Source: Bdellovibrionota bacterium (lineage in GTDB: Bacteria > Bdellovibrionota > FAC87 > UBA2466 > JACKAF01). Taken from it: a stretch of 64,000 bases of DNA. The DNA lies in assembly GCA_041391485.1 (NCBI GenBank), contig JAWKNY010000002.1:128245-192244 (forward strand), given 5' to 3'. The translations under genes were made by a program, and so were the position numbers. Below, one piece after another: positions 21,487-34,476 of this stretch (the first letter of the stretch is position 1; each line of letters begins with the position of its first letter). The notes under the pieces are model-generated. The model saw only the letters and a program-made list of their open reading frames with translations. It did not search any database and was not told where the DNA came from.

Positions 21487-21563
21487 GCGGGACTAGCTCA
21501 GTTGGCTAGAGCGTCTCCTTGCCAAGGAGAAGGTCGCGGGTTCGAATCCCGTGTCCCGCTCCA
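21487..21563 (+). tRNA. tRNA-Gly (anticodon GCC), CCA encoded
   Basis: Cloverleaf read by hand: acceptor GCGGGAC/GTCCCGC, D arm GCTC-AGTTGGCTA-GAGC, anticodon arm TCTCC-TTGCCAA-GGAGA (GCC at 21521-21523), T arm GCGGG-TTCGAAT-CCCGT, discriminator T, CCA. Confidence 0.95.
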
Positions 21564-21572
21564 CTTTTACAC

Positions 21573-22451
21573 ATGAAATATCTCATCTACCGCATTTTAG
21601 GGAACGACCTTCCTTATCGCCACGGCCTGGGCCAAACTCTGCGCAATACTCAGTTTATCTTGAATCGTGAAGACCACGTTGGGCCCGCAAACCGCCGCTG
21701 GGTGCTGAATCGAATCTTTGACGCCAACATAGAGAACAAGCTCGTTCGCACCCTTGAGAAGCGAGGTGAAACCTTCGTTCGAATACCGTTTGAACAGGCG
21801 GTCTTTCGTGAAAAATTGGCAAGAGATCGTCAATCGGCTTTCGCTTATTTGACGAATGTCAACGCAGCACGAAACCTGGCACTAAGCGACGGACTAAAGA
21901 TTGCAGAATGGGTATTCCCATTCGACGGGTCGTGCATCGTCCCCAGAGCTGGAATTGTTGAATTGGAACTTGGCCTCTCTAACGTACAAACACCCTTGAT
22001 TGTCGTGCGAATGGCTCGCATTAGATCTTTTGCGAAGGTCAATCGACCTCCTGTCTTTACCGAAGAGGGCGTACCCACCGAAAAGTCCCTGGGGTTTTCA
22101 AGGAAGAGTCAGCTGCGTTTTGACGAGAACCGCATGTATGGAAAAGCCGATAAGGCAGCGTTATTGAATCAAATTGGCTTACCCGGACCCTGGAACACGT
22201 GGGCCGAGGCAGGTGAGGTTCCGAACTCCGCGGAAGCTTACACGGAATTCGGCTACATCGTTCGACTGCCCTCTGGAAATCGTTTTGCCGATTGGGGATA
22301 TTCGCGACGAAGGTATTTTCGGGAAGAGTGCTTTAACGCCACTCTGCGCTACGCCTCGCTGACAGATCGTGGCACATTCAAACTCAAGTGGAGACTGCGC
22401 GTATTTCTAAGAAATATATTGGCGTGGTGCGAACAACTGCTTCAGCTATGA
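21573..22451 (+). CDS. hypothetical protein, first gene of the glycan island
   Basis: Start is moved to ATG 21573 because the track ORF start overlaps the tRNA. Conserved-looking motifs YRILGNDLPYRHG, YLTNVNAARNLAL and WVFPFDGSC (possible DxD-like). Family not identified. Confidence 0.5.
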   Translation: MKYLIYRILGNDLPYRHGLGQTLRNTQFILNREDHVGPANRRWVLNRIFDANIENKLVRTLEKRGETFVRIPFEQAVFREKLARDRQSAFAYLTNVNAARNLALSDGLKIAEWVFPFDGSCIVPRAGIVELELGLSNVQTPLIVVRMARIRSFAKVNRPPVFTEEGVPTEKSLGFSRKSQLRFDENRMYGKADKAALLNQIGLPGPWNTWAEAGEVPNSAEAYTEFGYIVRLPSGNRFADWGYSRRRYFREECFNATLRYASLTDRGTFKLKWRLRVFLRNILAWCEQLLQL

Positions 22452-23576
22452 CGAATCAGGATTTCCGCATTCGGTTTTCTAACGGAAGCCGTAACTCGAT
22501 ACTTTTCGACCGGATGCCCTACGGCAATCATCATGATTGGCTTTTCGTACTCCTGAAGATCCAGACAATCCTTCAGGTCCTTCTCCACCAGCCGATCCAC
22601 GCAAAGGTTGAGGCAACAGGTGACAAGCCCCAAAGAATGCAAGGCATAAACTAGAGACATCGAAAACATGCCGCCATCGATCCAGCCCTGACGTCGCTCA
22701 CGAATACTAAAAAACGCGCGGGAATCACTCGTCACCAAAAGGAGACGCGTGACTCCATGTCCAAAGCCCCGATTACCGTTCTGAAAAGCCAGAGCGGCCT
22801 GGATGAATTGGGGATTTTTTAAATCGTGCAAAAACCAGGGTTGGCGATTGCAAACGGACGGTGATCGTTTGGCCATTCCAAGAGCCGAATCTATGAGGCT
22901 CATCGGATACCGGAGAGTCTGAAAAATCCCGCACACTGTGCCGGCAGTAAAACCAGGCCTTCAAATCTGCCCGAGCGTCCTTGAGAAAGTCCTCTCGGTT
23001 GATCTCCTGATAGCCACCGCCCTCTACCGCGTACGGCTTGCCCAGTAGAAGCCCGCACCGGGCTATCGCTTCGCGAAGATTGGTTTGAGCAATCCCGCCT
23101 TTTTCCTGGAAATCCGCATACCTCGTCAAGACCTGCAAAACCGTTCCGCACAGTTCGTGGGGTCCGTACTCCCTGATGTAGCGTTCAAGATCGCGGGCAA
23201 GGCCTTCTGAGACGCCCTCACCGAAGCCCGGCGCCCGTCCCGCAAACACAAGCGACTTTTCAAGTTTGTGGTACTCTTTGGTGAGTTTCGCGCGAAGATT
23301 GACTTCTGTCTCCACCATAAAAAATGGGGAAGCAAACTTGAAGTAACTTTCGATATCGTCCAAGTAAGTCAACAGGGCCCATCCTCCGTGCTTCCTGCAA
23401 AGGCCCCAAAAGCGCACCACAAGCCCAATAGAACTGAAAATCCGTTTTGAGAGAAGCCAATTTACCCAGACGCCGGGTTTCAAAACGCGAAGAATACTGC
23501 GCGGCTCTCTCTCGACGGGACGGGGAGCTGGTGTCTGTGAGTCAGCTGGCTGTTCTTCGATTCGCTTGGTCTCCAA
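22442..23576 (-). pseudogene. unknown N-terminal domain fused to a nitroreductase-family flavoprotein domain; frame broken once (ORFs 22773-23576 and 22442-22936)
   Basis: The upstream frame ends with CRHSVRDFSDSPVSDE. The downstream frame continues LIDSALGMAKRSPSVCNRQPW...IMMIAVGHP. Together these form the nitroreductase signature RxSxRxF...PV..E...I...A..APS..N.QPW. The junction is at 22895-22901. Confidence 0.7.
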
Positions 23577-24624
23577 CCTTATCTCCCCATTTCAATTGGT
23601 TTACGAGCTTTAGAGAGTCCTCCAGAAAACTCAAAGACTGGCTTCTCAACTTTCCCAAACGCTTCTGAATCGATCCATAGTCCAAATTATCAAACCACAA
23701 AACAGGTTGGCTGAAATCTTCCGGCGTAATAGGAATGCCAAGTTGTTGCAGCAATGCGTAGACTTTGTGGAAAGCATCCTTGCGATTTAGCCAAAGAATT
23801 TTCTTCCCTAGAATTAGCGAAAAAATAAAGGCGTGGTAGCGGTTTGTGACTACATGCGAACTTTGTGCGATGGCCTTCACCCATTCAGCGGGACCCGCAT
23901 CGCGGATGGCCTGAGTCTCTATAGAGCCCAGTCCATCCGCTTCAATGGCCCTCATGGGTAGCTGACAGCGTGCCTGCAAAGCTCTCACGGCAGTGCTCAT
24001 CTCCGGTTTATGTTGGAGTCGGGGAGTGTGTACCAGGATGTGCGCCTCTTTCAAATCGCCCGCTATCGAACTCCAATCAAAAAGTAGAGTGGGATCCAAA
24101 CATATTGAAACATCACCCGAGAAATGAGGAGCCACCAGATCTTGAGTGTGACGATCTCGAACAGAGATGCGATCAAATCGGGCGAGTAGTGGATAGGATC
24201 CTGGGTGCAAGGCTTTCGCGCCCGAGGCACTTGCCGCGTAGGCCACACGACGGGCTGGAGAGCGAACAAAGTCCAAGAAGAGGCTGGGATCGTAGCCATT
24301 CGCTCCGTCCGGATTCCAAATCTGGTCACTGCCCGCGATGTACAGGTCGTACTTTGTAAACTTAAGCTGATGCCTCGAATAGTAGGGAAACCCTCGTAGA
24401 CCCTTTAAGAAACCTTTGAACCGCGCCCGTCTGCGCCACTCGTGTAGGGATCGAGGGAACATTGGATTGAAATAGAATCGTCGAGTCCAAGCCGGGCGAT
24501 AGTCGATGATTTCCGCATTCATCCCGCGCTCACGAAGCACACGACACAGCGCATAGCTTTGAAGAACAGCTCCGTAATTCAGGGAATGGTGGAAGGTAAG
24601 AATACCGATGCGAGGAGCGGTCAT
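23542..24624 (-). CDS. polysaccharide pyruvyl transferase family protein
   Basis: 360-aa ORF. The N-terminus IGILTFHHSLNYGAVLQSYAL and IAGSDQIWNP are typical of the CsaB/WcaK-type pyruvyl transferase family. Confidence 0.8.
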   Translation of the reverse strand: MTAPRIGILTFHHSLNYGAVLQSYALCRVLRERGMNAEIIDYRPAWTRRFYFNPMFPRSLHEWRRRARFKGFLKGLRGFPYYSRHQLKFTKYDLYIAGSDQIWNPDGANGYDPSLFLDFVRSPARRVAYAASASGAKALHPGSYPLLARFDRISVRDRHTQDLVAPHFSGDVSICLDPTLLFDWSSIAGDLKEAHILVHTPRLQHKPEMSTAVRALQARCQLPMRAIEADGLGSIETQAIRDAGPAEWVKAIAQSSHVVTNRYHAFIFSLILGKKILWLNRKDAFHKVYALLQQLGIPITPEDFSQPVLWFDNLDYGSIQKRLGKLRSQSLSFLEDSLKLVNQLKWGDKVGDQANRRTAS

Positions 24625-24734
24625 GCGTACCTAACATTATGGCCGACCCCACGTCAGAAAGCGAATCTCAAGGTAGTTGAGACCCTCAAGATCTTTTATA
24701 ATTCAATAATCTCACCCGAAAAAAGGATCCCCCA

Positions 24735-26040
24735 ATGACTGATCTCAGCACGCCCTTTTTGGGCTTCGAACTTGAAAACCCCTGGTGCGTGGCATCCGCG
24801 CCCCCACGGCCACGGGCAAACTCATGGCCCAAGCTTTTGATGCGGGGTGGTCCGCCGCTGTGATGAAAACGGTGGGACCCGTGGAAGAGCCCATCGTGAA
24901 TGTCGCTCCGCGCATTCAGGCGATGAAGAAGTGGAAGCGTGAGATAGCCCTGCAAAACATCGAACTCATCACCGATCGCCGTCTCTCGGTTTGGCTTGAA
25001 GAGCTGAGGTTTTGCGCAAGCGCTACCCACGAAAAATGATCATTGGTTCAATCATGGCTCCCGGGCATGACATGCAGGCGTGGGCCCGGCTTGTTGAAGA
25101 AATGAACAAGGCCGGGTGCGACGCACTGGAGCTGAACCTCGGATGCCCACACGGAATGACCGAACGGGATATGGGTGCCATCTGCTCTCAGGACGCCGAG
25201 ATTGTTTTTAATATTGTGCAAACAGCGAAGAGTGTCTCCAAGATCCCCATCCTGACCAAACTCACTCCCAACGTAACCAACATCAAGGTGATGGCGGATG
25301 CAGCAAGAAAAGCAGGAACGGACGCCATTACGGTAATCAATACGGTCAACGGCATCATCGGAATCGATATTCGGAAACGTGAGCCGCTGCTTTCGGTAAA
25401 TGGGCTGACGGCCATAGGCGGAATCTCAGGAAACGCCGTCAAACCGGTCGGTCTCAAATGTGTGGCTGAATGCAAGCAGGCCACCGGACTTCCGGTCTCC
25501 GCTACAGGTGGCATATCGAGCTGGTCTGACGGTGTCGAATACCTTCTCATGGGAGCCGATCAGCTTCAGGTATGCAGTGAGATCATGATCCGTGGCTTTA
25601 AGATTATTCAACAGCTCAATAAGGGACTCGCTCGCTACATGGAAGAAATGGGATATAGCCGTCTGCAGGAAGTAAAAGGCGAACTCTATAAGAGCGTCAC
25701 CAGTTTTGAGACGCTCTTGAAAACGTCTTCCGCCGAAAAGGTGAAAGTAAACGAGGAAACCTGCACCGGATGCAAGCTCTGCGTGGTGGCATGCGAGGAC
25801 GCAGGCTATCACGCTCTCGCGATGAAGAGTGCGCCACCCTCACCGCGCACTTTGAAACCCCGGGAAGTTGCGGATGTCATCGTTCAAAATTGTACCGGTT
25901 GCAATCTGTGCGTCGCGGTCTGCCCAGTACCTGATTGCATGAGTCTCTATGACTCCAAGCAGACTTTTCCCTACGAGTTACACGCTAGCTACGCCGAAAA
26001 CACCCTAAGCTCCTCCGGCTCCAAAAAAGCCGCTGGATAA
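24735..26040 (+). pseudogene. dihydropyrimidine/dihydroorotate dehydrogenase-like FMN protein with C-terminal 2x[4Fe-4S] ferredoxin domain (PreA-like); two frame breaks
   Basis: Three frames read in series. The first gives MTDLSTPFLGFELENPWCVASAPP. The second gives TATGKLMAQAFDAGWSAAVMKTVG...NIELITDRRLSVWLEELR. The third gives LRKRYPRKMIIGSIM...LELNLGCPHGM...CTGCKLCVVACED...CTGCNLCVAVCP. Breaks are at CCCCC 24801-24805 and TTTT 25010-25013. Confidence 0.8.
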
Positions 26041-26994: not shown

Positions 26995-28317
26995 TTAGGC
27001 CGCAAGCGCGTGGAGCGAACCGAACTCAACAAGAGTCTCCTCCACGTACTTTAACATCTGCTCACTCAGCGTAGGCGAACACCCTAGGAAGAAGACCCGC
27101 TCAATGACCTGGTTGGCTAGAGGGTACTTTCGGAAATCATCCAATCCACTATAGGCGGGATGGCACAGGATATTTCCCCCAAAAAAGTTTCTTGTTTGGA
27201 TTCTTTTCGATTCGAGATGACGGACGATCTCATTCCTCATCGAAGCATTCGGGGCGACGATAGGGACCGCAAACCAACTGGTTCTCGCCTTGGGGTGCTC
27301 GTCGGGAACTTCGAATCCGGCTAGCCCGTCTTCGATCACGCTTTGCAGCCGATTCTTGATATCGATTCTTCGTCTAATAACCTCGGGTAACTTTGCAATT
27401 TGCACCAAACCGATACTTCCCTGAAGATCCAAAGGCTTTAAGTTGTAGCCGACATTTGAATAAACATAACGGTGATCCACGGTACACGCGACGGACGGGA
27501 GCCAGTTGGAAAACCGTTTTCCGCAAGTCCCATTCGGGAGCATGTTGTTTATTCCGCTACAATAACAATCGCGGCCCCAGTTGATCAAACTCCTGACCAC
27601 TTTTTCGAGTTCGCCGTCATTGACCGAAACCATACCGCCTTCACCCGTAGTGATGTGGTGGGCCGGGTAAAACGAGCAGGTAGAGGCGATGGCGTGGCTG
27701 CTCAGCGGCTTGCCATCCCACAAGGACCCTAAGCTATCGCACCCGTCCAGAACTAGCTCAATTCCGTGTTTCTTCGCCAACTGATCCAAACGGTCCATGT
27801 CGGGAGGGTTTCCTAGGCTCGGAGAAACCAGGATCGCACCGGTGTTCTTGTTGATCGCCGCCTCCACTTTGTCCAAATCAAAATTCAAATCGGACATTTG
27901 GATATCGACAAACTTGGGTCTCATCTGATTTTGTAATATCGGCGCAACGGAAGTGGGAAAACCTACGGCGGAAACAATGATTTCGGTTTTATCAGTCCAA
28001 CCCAAATACTTCTTAAGCGCACCGATCATCACCAAATTGGCGGAGGCTCCCCGAATTGGTCATGACTGATTTTTGGCCTCCACCACTTTCGAAAACTCAG
28101 CTTCAAAGCGACTGACCGCTTCGCCCGAGGCCAGCCATTTGCCCGCCAACAGAGATTCAATCGCTGCGACTACCTCCTCTTCATTCCAGAAGGGCCCGCC
28201 ATAGAGTACAGTGTCTTTTGCTGGATCGAATTCCTTCTTGCGCATGTTGTGCAAGTACGGAAACAGATCGTGCTCTTTTTTTAGAGCTTTCAGCCAGCTT
28301 TTAATTTTCTCTCGCAA
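26995..28317 (-). pseudogene. rfbH: RfbH/DdhC-type PLP/PMP-dependent sugar 3-dehydratase (DegT/DnrJ/EryC1 family); compensated double frameshift
   Basis: SFYPAHHITTGEGG, with His in place of the usual Lys, is the E1/RfbH hallmark. ORFs 28060-28317 and 26995-28035 share one frame, separated by a TGA. An 18-20 nt stretch in another frame reads SVMTNSGS. Breaks are at AAAAA 28070-28074 and GGGG 28049-28052 (coding strand). Confidence 0.85.
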
Positions 28318-29147
28318 TTGCAGATCTCCGTAATTGAGCTTTCAATCGAACGCGAAGGTTCGAAACCCAAAGCTCTTATTTTGGAAACATCGAGGTAAGA
28401 ATCCGTTACTTTGTCGTCCGCAGACTCAATTATTCGACTCTTGGACTTGAGCTGCATATGAGCCATGTCAATCAGGTTACGAAACAGGTACCTTTTGCCC
28501 GAACCAATATTGATAATCGAATTGAGTGGCGCGCTTAGTAAACAAAGGTCAAGCGCCCGAACTACATCTTCCACATGAAGATAGTCGCGAAAAAAGTTTC
28601 CCCCAGCGGACAAGGTAATGTCACGGTCGTGTGCCATTTCGGAAATCAAATACTGCAAAGCATTTTTTTCCTTAGACCATCTATCTGTAGGACCAATCAC
28701 GTTGGATAAGCGAAATATTCGATACGCTAAGCCAAAAGTTTCGCAGTACGTAATGAGAAGCTGTTCGGCGGTTCGCTTAGTCATTGAGTAAAAGCCCCGG
28801 GGCTGACAAGCAGACTCTTCCTTGGCAGGAAGGGCACAGTTCCCATACACAAACCAACTGGAAACAAAGTTGAAGACCCCGCCCGTTTCCCTAAACTCGG
28901 AAAGCGCTTCGAGTAGCACTCCAATATTCGTTTGGTAATCCAACGTGAGGTCAGAGAAGATATTCTGATTGTGTGTAGTGCTGATCAGGTAAAGAATCTG
29001 CTCAGACCGAGGAACGCGTTCCTTTTTTGGAATAGAAACCGTAGGAAGCGAAGACAAACGGCAAAACTCGCTCCCAATAAACCCTGTGGAACCAAAGACC
29101 GAAACTTTGCTGTCCCACTCTTCGCCTTTTGCTCTTTTACACGTCAT
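28290..29147 (-). CDS. NAD(P)-dependent sugar epimerase/reductase (short SDR, RfbS/RfbJ-sized)
   Basis: 285-aa ORF. Rossmann motif VFGSTGFIG and catalytic YSMTK (YxxxK). It overlaps the rfbH start by 28 nt. Confidence 0.75.
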   Translation of the reverse strand: MTCKRAKGEEWDSKVSVFGSTGFIGSEFCRLSSLPTVSIPKKERVPRSEQILYLISTTHNQNIFSDLTLDYQTNIGVLLEALSEFRETGGVFNFVSSWFVYGNCALPAKEESACQPRGFYSMTKRTAEQLLITYCETFGLAYRIFRLSNVIGPTDRWSKEKNALQYLISEMAHDRDITLSAGGNFFRDYLHVEDVVRALDLCLLSAPLNSIINIGSGKRYLFRNLIDMAHMQLKSKSRIIESADDKVTDSYLDVSKIRALGFEPSRSIESSITEICNCERKLKAG

Positions 29148-29342
29148 CTCGCCCTAGTTATCGTCGGTAAAACCCTTAGTCTGAAGGCAAAGACAAGCGG
29201 ACCTAAACCATTGAATTAGTGTAGAAAGCCGGTGGTTTTCGCTTCTTTGATCAACAAGCAACCCAGCGCAGCGCGGCATTGCCCCAGTGCGTCATCCCTG
29301 GCTCTGGTATAATGGAGGCCATCGCACGCGATAGATTTTTCT

Positions 29343-30230
29343 TTGTTCTCTAAGATTTCAAGGCCACTAGTGAAAACGAGCGTTCTCATTCTGAACTGGA
29401 ATAGCTCAGACGAAACAATCCGACTACACAGCGAAATCAAAAAGCTGAACGCCGGCTTCAACGTTACCGTTATCGACAACAGTTCGAGGCCCAAGGACCA
29501 GGAAAACCTTAGGCGCCACATTCCCAGCGAAGATTTCATTCAATCAGGTAAGAACCTAGGCTACTCGTGGGGTAACAACTTCGGCCTTAGAAAGGCCATC
29601 GAAAACGGTTACGACTGTGCCTGCATCCTGAACCCCGACATCCTGATAAAAGACAATTTCATCTCCCCTTTGGTGAGCCAATTGGAGACAAACCCTCAGA
29701 TCGCAGCAATTGGTCCACGAGTTTGTTACCGGGAGCGCGAGGATACTATCTATTCAGATGGAGGCGTCGTTGATCTAAGCGGAGGTTTTCATACACGCCA
29801 CCAGCACTACAACAAGCCCGTCTCGGAAGTCCCGGCTAAGGTACGGGACGTAGACTATGTCCATGGCGGCGCAATGCTTCTGAATCTCAAAGCAGTCAAA
29901 GACGTCGGCCTTTTGGATGAAAGTTTGTTCATGTATTTCGATGAAGTGGAGTGGTGCCTTAGAGCGAAGCAGGCAGGGTGGCGCCTAGTGGCGGACCCTC
30001 GAGTCACGGTATTCCACCTCACCAGTCCGAAGGGCCCTGCTTATCACTTCTACATGGTTCGAAATAGGATTTGGGTGGCAAAACGCTTTGGCCGGGGCCG
30101 CCCGACCCTGACTTGTGTGGCCCGCGACTTGTATTACGAACTCAGGCAGAACCTAGCCCGGGCGAAGTGGCCCGGTAACCACTTCATGAGCCGAATTCGA
30201 GGATTCCTCAGCGGACTTTTATCTCAGTAG
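29343..30230 (+). CDS. glycosyltransferase family 2 (rhamnosyltransferase-like)
   Basis: 295-aa ORF with SVLILNWNSSDETI, VIDNSS and MYFDEVEWCLRA. Confidence 0.8.
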   Translation: MFSKISRPLVKTSVLILNWNSSDETIRLHSEIKKLNAGFNVTVIDNSSRPKDQENLRRHIPSEDFIQSGKNLGYSWGNNFGLRKAIENGYDCACILNPDILIKDNFISPLVSQLETNPQIAAIGPRVCYREREDTIYSDGGVVDLSGGFHTRHQHYNKPVSEVPAKVRDVDYVHGGAMLLNLKAVKDVGLLDESLFMYFDEVEWCLRAKQAGWRLVADPRVTVFHLTSPKGPAYHFYMVRNRIWVAKRFGRGRPTLTCVARDLYYELRQNLARAKWPGNHFMSRIRGFLSGLLSQ

Positions 30231-33297: not shown

Positions 33298-34476
33298 ATG
33301 AGAATGAACACGATGCGTCTCGCAGGGCTACTAATCCTTTGGATACTTGTTTTCCCGGTTCTTGGCGGGGCTGAAGAAAACACCGCACCTCCCCAAAGCC
33401 AGTCGGAGGCACCCGCCGCAGAAAGCACAGACGTCCCGCCAGCTCGGACAGCTGCTAACTCCCCGTGGACATTAACCGGTGCTATTTTCAAAGATCAACA
33501 GACGCCACCTTTCTCGCTCGGAGCCTGGCTTCAAGTCGGGTACACGACCCGGTCCGACGGCGTCTTTGACACGCACCCCGGTTATATCGACTTGCAGCAA
33601 GCTTGGGTTTTCCTGGAAAGAAAGGCAGACGGGCGAAACGGCGTGGATTTTGGCGGACGAGTAGACTTTGTTTACGGCACCGACGCGCAGAACATATAGT
33701 CTTTTGGTAATCCGCCAGGTCGCTTTGATTTCATGACTGGTTGGAGCAACGGAGTTTACGGGGCGGCCCTCCCCCAACTCTATCTCGAAGTCGCGCACCG
33801 GGATTTAAGTGTGAAACTCGGCCACTTTTTTACACTCCTTGGTTACCAGGTAGTTCCCGCCACCGGAAACTTCTTCTACAGTCAGCCCTTCACCTTTAAT
33901 TTTGGGGAGGCGTTTACTCACACAGGCGCTTTGGCAACGTACGCGGCAAGTGAGCGTGTTGAGGTCTACGCAGGTTACACCCTTGGTTGGGATACCGGAT
34001 TCGCCCAACTCAACGGAGGATCGAACTTCCTGGGAGGGGCAAAAGCTCAGCTCTCCGATCAGTTGAGCCTCACCTACATCACCACTTGGGGGAACCTGGG
34101 TTGGATTGGGTCCGGCTATTCGCACAGCCTAGTTGCCGATTGGCAAATCAATGAGAACTGGGAGTACGTTTTACAGACGGACCTCGACTCCACCACTTAC
34201 ACTGGCTACGGCGGCACGGGCTACAACGCCATCGGAATCAACCAGTATCTTTACCATACTCTAAACGCGCAATTTAAAGCCGGCGGCCGCTTTGAATGGT
34301 GGAGGGCAAATAGTGTTTCTCACTTTGCATTCACAGCGGGACTCAATTGGTTGCCCATCCCGAACGTACGGCTGCGGCCCGAATTGCGGTACCAGTGGAT
34401 CGCCGGAAGTTCCAACCCTATAGGGATTCCTAACAATACCTGGATACTCGGAATTGACGGCATCGTAAGCATCTAG
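33298..34476 (+). pseudogene. BBP7-type outer-membrane beta-barrel porin with an in-frame TAG (33697-33699)
   Basis: ORFs 33298-33699 and 33733-34476 share one frame. Signal peptide present. YGTDAQNI*SFGN...ALPQLYLEVAHRDLSVKLGHFFTLLGYQVVPATGNFFYS...FTHTGALATY is continuous across the stop. Confidence 0.65.

Follow-up and report, generated by a model that had tools for sequence, protein, structure and literature searches.

The question raised by this locus is why a gene for a polysaccharide pyruvyl transferase (PT) lies between genes for two different flavoprotein reductases. The locus is in a 64,000-nt stretch of DNA from a Bdellovibrionota bacterium (assembly GCA_041391485.1, contig JAWKNY010000002.1, positions 128,245 to 192,244), which we call the window. 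One neighbor of the PT gene encodes a long-form nitroreductase (NTR), and the other encodes a protein resembling PreA. A reading made from the sequence alone (the sequence-only reading) had proposed, by analogy with MurA and MurB, that one or both reductases convert a pyruvyl or enolpyruvyl substituent into an O-lactyl group on a sugar. Our conclusion, to which we assign a probability of roughly 0.6, is that two unrelated things stand side by side at this site, a PT-NTR module for a lactyl ether and a stranded preA gene, and that the frame changes found in both reductase genes are most likely assembly errors.

We fetched 80 NTR-encoding loci, with flanks of up to 10 kb, from one-genome-per-species contigs representing many phyla. 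A tblastn search alone detected PT in 33 of these loci, while an iterated PT profile found it in 74, all of which were then confirmed by Pfam as PF04230. These come from Cyanobacteria, Proteobacteria, Planctomycetes, Verrucomicrobia, Firmicutes, Actinobacteria, Bacteroidetes, and others. Six loci lack PT in the fetched sequence, four of them with a truncated flank, which leaves two full-flank loci without PT. The pairing is usually close: in 52 of the 80 loci a same-strand PT gene lies within 350 nt of the NTR gene (downstream in 38, upstream as in the window in 13, and overlapping the NTR match in 1). The most frequent neighbor family of NTR is PT, followed by GT4 (40 loci), Wzx flippase (35 loci), GT2 (22 loci), and Wzc (19 loci). 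Based on this ranking, we conclude that the PT-NTR pair is a conserved module of polysaccharide gene clusters and that the pair in the window is one instance of a widespread, biochemically uncharacterized module. PreA was found in none of the 80 loci. Thus, the neighborhood statistics that the sequence-only reading had suggested as a check support the MurA/MurB-like proposal for the nitroreductase, for which the serotype data given below also speak, but not for the PreA-like protein. Within this lineage, NTR is sporadic (3 of 40 relatives), as expected for accessory glycan genes. The NTR of the same-genus genome G001 was considered as an orthologous locus and rejected, being 25 to 44% identical and in a different context. 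The genome of the window also has a second PT, on contig C16, with no obvious reductase neighbor by eye, its neighbors not having been scanned for families.

The window PT is a full-length member of its family. Its intact open reading frame (ORF), already called a pyruvyl transferase in the sequence-only reading, matches PF04230 with 117 bits against a gathering threshold of 25.3 (E = 1.9e-33), over profile positions 1 to 278 of 280. It aligns over its full length with the PT of Escherichia coli O124 (E = 9e-23) and with the PT that accompanies NTR on an E. coli plasmid (E = 2e-23), while its match to the ketal-forming WcaK is only a local one of 52 residues. A tree of 79 PTs places the window PT in a starred clade of 32 rows together with both E. 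coli PTs, which are sisters of each other. One of the sisters, the O124 PT, has an FrhB-like partner and the other, the plasmid PT, has an NTR partner, which suggests that either type of reductase can take the place of the other beside PT.

Homologs of the window NTR number more than 1,100, are 320 to 380 amino acids (aa) long, and are always annotated just as "nitroreductase family protein." After one frame repair (see below), the window NTR fits this long-form class, which combines a helical N-terminal domain, an NTR domain, and an adjacent PF04230 gene. The C-terminal ORF piece matches PF00881 with 36.9 bits (cutoff, 23.5), and the FMN-binding motifs RHSVR and PSVCNRQ (of the RxSxR and PSxxNxQ types) are seen in the repaired protein. 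The repaired NTR aligns with 15 homologs across the repaired junction, with RHSxR, PSVCNRQ, QNGNxGF, and ERxQxWxDGG invariant. In a scan of NCBIfam, its only matches are below threshold, to BluB and to the FbiB C-terminal domain. The AlphaFold model of the closest full-length homolog (predicted local distance difference test [pLDDT] score, 94) joins an N-terminal bundle of helices to a classic nitroreductase fold, and it superposes on NTR structures with template modeling (TM) scores of up to 0.84 on target length. AlbA, a cyclodipeptide oxidase, and iodotyrosine deiodinase are among the closest folds, and the PDB sequence matches include the NTR-fold enone reductase 4qlx; by fold and by sequence, the PDB matches are confined to the NTR domain.

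The N-terminal domain, described in the sequence-only reading as some 200 aa without a recognized motif, has a somewhat shorter conserved part of about 150 residues. This part is common to the NTR homologs and carries D..RF, YHxIEKGL, PRxGFG, and GG motifs, with the D, H..EK, and GG positions invariant. It has no sequence match in Pfam or PDB, and a fold search of PDB with the domain gave no significant match (best E, 0.72; TM score, ≤0.4). The structure prediction that had been recommended for it gives a confident helical bundle (pLDDT of 87 for the domain alone) with no PDB relative. This domain probably shapes the binding of a substrate or partner.

Lactyl-ether sugars (glycolactilic acids) are immunodominant groups of several O-antigens and capsules, among them those of E. 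coli O58, O69, O124, O146, and O150, of Shigella dysenteriae types 3 and 5, and of Klebsiella K22/K37. We know of no lactyl-ether enzymology beyond two genes named genetically in Shigella. Glucolactilic-acid genes, wfeP and its neighbor, were reportedly described by Senchenkova et al. in 2006 (cited in PMC5643014). A survey of 79 Klebsiella K loci lists a nitroreductase gene (HG127) for K22 and K37 only, with a PT gene (wclZ) that is unique to those types (PMC4616057). PT genes are present in K8, K22, K37, and K66, the capsules of which are not pyruvylated (PMC4616057). Among the constituents of the K22 capsule is 4-O-[(S)-1-carboxyethyl]-D-glucuronic acid, and the K37 capsule is set apart from it by O-acetylation alone (PMC13123978). 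The K22/K37 loci thus resemble the window in having PT with a nitroreductase, limited to two K types that have 4-O-(1-carboxyethyl)-glucuronic acid and no ketal. In K66, a "coenzyme F420 hydrogenase" gene adjoins PT (PMC4616057). We regard this K66 gene and its PT as an FrhB-type version of the reductase/PT pair. The Klebsiella survey proposed no function for the K22/K37 pair, and our literature search found no paper linking PT and a nitroreductase to lactyl ethers.

A second line of evidence comes from E. coli O164, in which a frameshift of wfeP has abolished the glucolactilic acid seen in O124 (PMC7685785). We reached the O124/O164 cluster by way of an insertion sequence (IS)-flanked wzx-NTR-PT fragment on an E. 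coli plasmid; its order in RefSeq is wzx, a gene for an FrhB-like flavoprotein, a PF04230 gene, and glycosyltransferase (GT) genes. Six RefSeq O124/O164 genomes fall into two groups: three carry an intact PF04230 gene, and in the remaining three a change of T6 to T5 at about nt 394 to 399 of the gene splits it. This indel is the sole difference among the six clusters in the 2.5 kb compared, which covers the FrhB-like and PT genes (e.g., L140:8148-9283 versus L141:2647-3783). Because this natural T6/T5 frameshift matches the frameshift reported for wfeP of O164, we infer that wfeP is the PT-family gene of O124/O164. The glucolactilic-acid systems of E. coli O124, S. dysenteriae 3, and Shigella boydii 17 (PMC5643014, PMC7685785) are like the window in that a PF04230 gene adjoins a flavoprotein reductase gene. 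On this identification of wfeP, loss of the PT-family gene in the O124 system removes the lactyl ether, and the O124 PT shares the starred clade with the window PT. The systems differ in the reductase, which is a 460-aa FrhB-like Fe-S flavoprotein in O124 and a nitroreductase in the window, and in that the O124 cluster carries both wzx and wzy, whereas the island in the window has neither. Taken together, the serotype data, which are correlative, point to an O-lactyl (1-carboxyethyl) product in place of a ketal.

The E. coli plasmid is p30COLEC-2 (NZ_CP070932.1; L139:10393-14668), a 34-kb IncN/IncX2 record with an IS903B/IS1A-flanked fragment of a polysaccharide locus. The fragment contains wzx, a long-form nitroreductase, PT, and GT-A, together with a second PT and a GT2, and the closest relatives of its NTR are from Aeromonas, Vibrio, and Shewanella. 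A blastn search with a low-GC NTR gene against E. coli genomes gave no match; the plasmid was matched by tblastn.

By analogy with characterized enzymes, the PT-NTR pair probably attaches lactic acid to a surface sugar through an ether bond. The PF04230 enzyme would transfer the enolpyruvyl group of phosphoenolpyruvate (PEP) to a sugar hydroxyl, and the usual ketal would arise when a second hydroxyl adds to the enolpyruvyl/oxocarbenium intermediate. With NTR present, NAD(P)H would reduce the FMN nitroreductase domain, which would in turn deliver a hydride to the enol-ether C=C. The product would then be a glycolactilic acid, with an O-(1-carboxyethyl) (lactyl) ether in place of the cyclic pyruvate ketal. 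The wording "synthesis of UDP-D-GlcpLA" in a review suggests action at the nucleotide-sugar level. The same chemistry, that is, transfer of enolpyruvyl from PEP to a sugar hydroxyl followed by flavin-dependent reduction to a lactyl ether, is that of MurA and MurB in UDP-MurNAc synthesis, but there is no homology: PT belongs to PF04230 and does not have the EPSP-synthase fold, and the fold of NTR is that of FMN nitroreductases, not that of the FAD-binding MurB. In a Pfam scan, all three window proteins match just the PF04230, PF00881/PF14512, DHO_dh, and Fer4 families, with no MurA or MurB family among them. A precedent within the nitroreductase superfamily is the reduction of the PEP-derived enolpyruvyl group of dehydro-F420-0 (PMC8498797). 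The FbiB C-terminal domain and the stand-alone F420 NTR enzymes that use FMN to reduce this group to lactyl (PMC8498797) are like the proposed NTR in this respect, but they act on another substrate and have no helical N-terminal domain, and the window NTR is far below the cutoff of TIGR03553, the FbiB C-terminal dehydro-F420-0 reductase model (23.6 bits versus 249.55). We consider the odds about even that the long-form NTRs with a PF04230 partner are dedicated enol-ether reductases for the nonmurein lactyl ethers of capsules, O-antigens, and cyanobacterial exopolysaccharides, being MurA/MurB-like with unrelated folds and interchangeable with FrhB-like proteins.

Several points weigh against a lactyl-ether role. 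The partners of NTR also include a second deep PT clade, which holds about half of the NTR-adjacent PTs, and WcaK is nested there, on a long, unreliable branch. Since this NTR-partnered clade contains a ketal-forming enzyme, PT subfamily alone does not predict the product. The case that is tied genetically to the lactyl group, in E. coli and Shigella, has an FrhB-like reductase and not NTR. The K22/K37 nitroreductase is only a putative member of the long-form NTR family; a search with the E. coli plasmid NTR led to Aeromonas, Vibrio, Shewanella, and Flavobacterium, with no Klebsiella among the best 120 matches. No wzx or wzy is present at 21.5 to 33 kb of the window, and we know of no long-form NTR that has been assayed biochemically. 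One could thus suppose that PT makes an ordinary pyruvate ketal and that NTR does another job, as a dehydrogenase or oxidase of the AlbA or McbC type, in keto-sugar reduction, or as a nonredox scaffold acting through its helical domain. The kinship of the fold with AlbA and iodotyrosine deiodinase, which shows that it is chemically versatile, and the share of NTR-adjacent PTs in the clade of WcaK both favor this explanation. Nevertheless, we consider it unlikely. In Klebsiella K22/K37, the pair is present, the ketal is absent, and the lactyl ether is present. Beside closely related PTs, NTR is replaced by an FrhB-like reductase, and genetic evidence links the O124 PT to the lactyl group. Moreover, the association of NTR is specific to PT and not to any one sugar-nucleotide pathway.

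The gene layout at the locus is summarized in Table 1. The longest NTR ORF begins at TTG 23576, with a Shine-Dalgarno-like GGGAGA motif 5 nt upstream, and this start gives a 35-nt overlap with the end of the PT gene, as the sequence-only reading had described. From this arrangement, PT and NTR are judged to be cotranscribed and are probably translationally coupled. The divergent pairing of PT and the PreA-like gene across 110 nt was also described correctly, the starts being 24624 and ATG 24735. The p310 gene runs toward the NTR gene, and the ends of the two overlap by 10 nt. Scans of Pfam and NCBIfam gave no match for p310, and none of the 80 NTR loci has a homolog.

Table 1. Features of the PT-NTR-PreA locus (window coordinates)
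Feature	Coordinates	Strand	Basis or comment
tRNA-Gly(GCC)	21487..21563	+	ARAGORN; left edge of p310-NTR-PT block
p310	21573-22451	+	Protein of ~292-310 aa, directly after tRNA-Gly
Long-form nitroreductase (NTR), ~377 aa once read through	22442..23576	-	Two ORFs, 22773-23576 and 22442-22936
NTR N-terminal domain, ~150 aa, all-helical bundle	22947..23393	-	Alignment and AlphaFold models
Polysaccharide pyruvyl transferase (PT), 360 aa, intact	23542..24624	-	PF04230; upstream of NTR gene, overlapping
Divergent PT/PreA intergenic region, 110 nt	24625..24734		Spacing between gene starts
Apparent PreA orthologue (dihydropyrimidine dehydrogenase FMN/2x[4Fe-4S] subunit)	24735..26040	+	Two -1 frame changes

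The sequence-only reading had the positions and spacings of both reductase genes right, but it treated each as a single open frame, and neither is one. The two NTR ORFs overlap in different frames, with one extra base (+1) near 22897-22898, in a CC dinucleotide; the first ORF ends in RHSVRDFSDSPVSDE, and the second carries on with LIDSALGMAKRSPSVCNRQPW. The PreA-like gene is in frame 0 from 24735, loses a base in the C5 run at 24801-24805, and loses another in the T4 run at 25010-25013. Its sole long listed ORF is 25012-26040, the open frame as assembled spans residues 92 to 435, and tblastn with the PreA proteins of ten relatives breaks at those two points. When read through the shifts, the NTR and PreA proteins each align end to end with their own families.

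The error rate of this assembly was estimated with a same-genus genome, of which 118 intact ORFs (≥250 aa) served as references. Of their orthologues in the assembly, 23 (~19%) are frame broken, with 30 changes in 141 kb (0.21 per kb), and some of the broken genes are 98% identical to their same-genus counterparts. Even rpoC (C6:10276-14232) shows two shifts that compensate each other; rpoB is intact. Completeness of the assembly is 82% at a size where relatives score ≥95%, which probably reflects indel-broken frames. Because about one-fifth of genes are broken genome-wide, the three frame changes at this locus are most likely sequencing or assembly indel errors. Against this, three changes in 3.6 kb is about fourfold the genome background (Poisson estimate, P ~ 0.04). 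If the changes were genuine, NTR and PreA would be pseudogenes and the module would be dead in this organism, an explanation with which the local density, the position of the NTR shift in a CC dinucleotide with no long homopolymer, and the loss of all of the PreA pathway partners from this genome would agree. We regard it as improbable, since breakage of 19% of conserved orthologues, including rpoC, cannot be biological, each of the two PreA shifts is the loss of one base from a homopolymer, and the repaired NTR and PreA proteins retain every invariant family residue. Farther along the window (26995-29539 on the minus strand and 33298-34476 on the plus strand), the Pfam matches of the DegT/RfbH-like, SDR, and BBP2 porin genes begin far from the profile start, and a short ORF immediately precedes them. 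This ORF structure suggests additional breaks similar to those in NTR and PreA. ORF calls in this window require frame-aware reading, with indels repaired before gene calls are trusted, and the window copy of the PT-NTR pair, being error ridden, is a poor exemplar for experiments.

The other neighbor of PT has a different history. The frame-repaired protein scores 436 bits against the NF006183 equivalog (cutoff, 335) over residues 1 to 411, and the FMN protein with two 4Fe-4S clusters that had been predicted here does contain a DHO_dh domain and a Fer4_21 dicluster domain. Orthologues of 74 to 80% identity are present in 23 of 36 genomes of the same order and missing from the two closest relatives. 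In 10 of 10 relatives examined, PreA is directly downstream of a class-III aminotransferase, and in 7 to 8 of the 10 the order is methylmalonate-semialdehyde dehydrogenase (MMSDH), dihydropyrimidinase, C-N hydrolase, aminotransferase, PreA, and NCS1 nucleobase permease. The genome of the window has no orthologue of the other five genes. In the relative G003, RlmN-ECF sigma-anti-sigma-p223 lies a few kilobases from aminotransferase-PreA, in the same order as in the window, where tRNA-Gly, p310, NTR, and PT occupy the place of the upstream pyrimidine-operon genes of G003. This comparison indicates that the gene is a true PreA orthologue and the stranded relic of a reductive pyrimidine-catabolism operon. 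PreA is accordingly ancestral at this site, and the p310-NTR-PT block and further glycan genes came to flank it. Since PreA is in a pyrimidine operon in relatives, is the sole survivor here, and has the same flanking order in G003, we judge its divergent pairing with PT to be an accident of genome rearrangement. The sequence-only reading had named just such a setting in relatives as a mark of accidental adjacency, and its proposal of the PreA-like protein as a lactyl reductase accordingly falls, the protein being absent, as noted, from all of the NTR loci. It had also found no obvious housekeeping PreA role, given the lack of preT and pyrimidine genes nearby; the lack is real. Like E. coli PreA, the window protein is above the NF006183 cutoff and has orthologues beside dihydropyrimidinase, C-N hydrolase, aminotransferase, MMSDH, and NCS1 genes; it differs from the E. 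coli PreT/PreA system in that the rest of the pathway is missing from this genome and no PreT gene adjoins PreA, either here or in the relatives' operons (L102:178-6487 and equivalents L103-L111), PreT elsewhere in the genome not having been searched for. PreA in this order may receive its electrons from a partner other than PreT.

In a check for decay of PreA, the window protein departed from its relatives at 11 of the 252 positions where they are all identical; most of these changes are conservative, with no clear decay, and if PreA is dying, the onset is recent. This light decay, the retention of PreA alone of its operon and now between glycan genes, and the fact that FrhB-like partners of PTs are Fe-S flavoproteins too could be taken to mean that PreA was recruited to the glycan pathway as a second reductase or electron-input module for PT and NTR, but we consider this very improbable, given its absence from the NTR loci, its identity to orthologues that are always in a pyrimidine operon, its two frame changes in 1.3 kb, and its transcription divergently from PT.

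If the PT-NTR pair does make lactyl ethers, then a two-gene signature would predict from sequence which glycans are lactylated and which are pyruvylated. This would also correct annotations of "pyruvyl transferase," such as those behind the K22/K37/K66 discrepancy in the Klebsiella survey, and the pair would constitute a compact enzymatic route to muramic-acid-like sugars.

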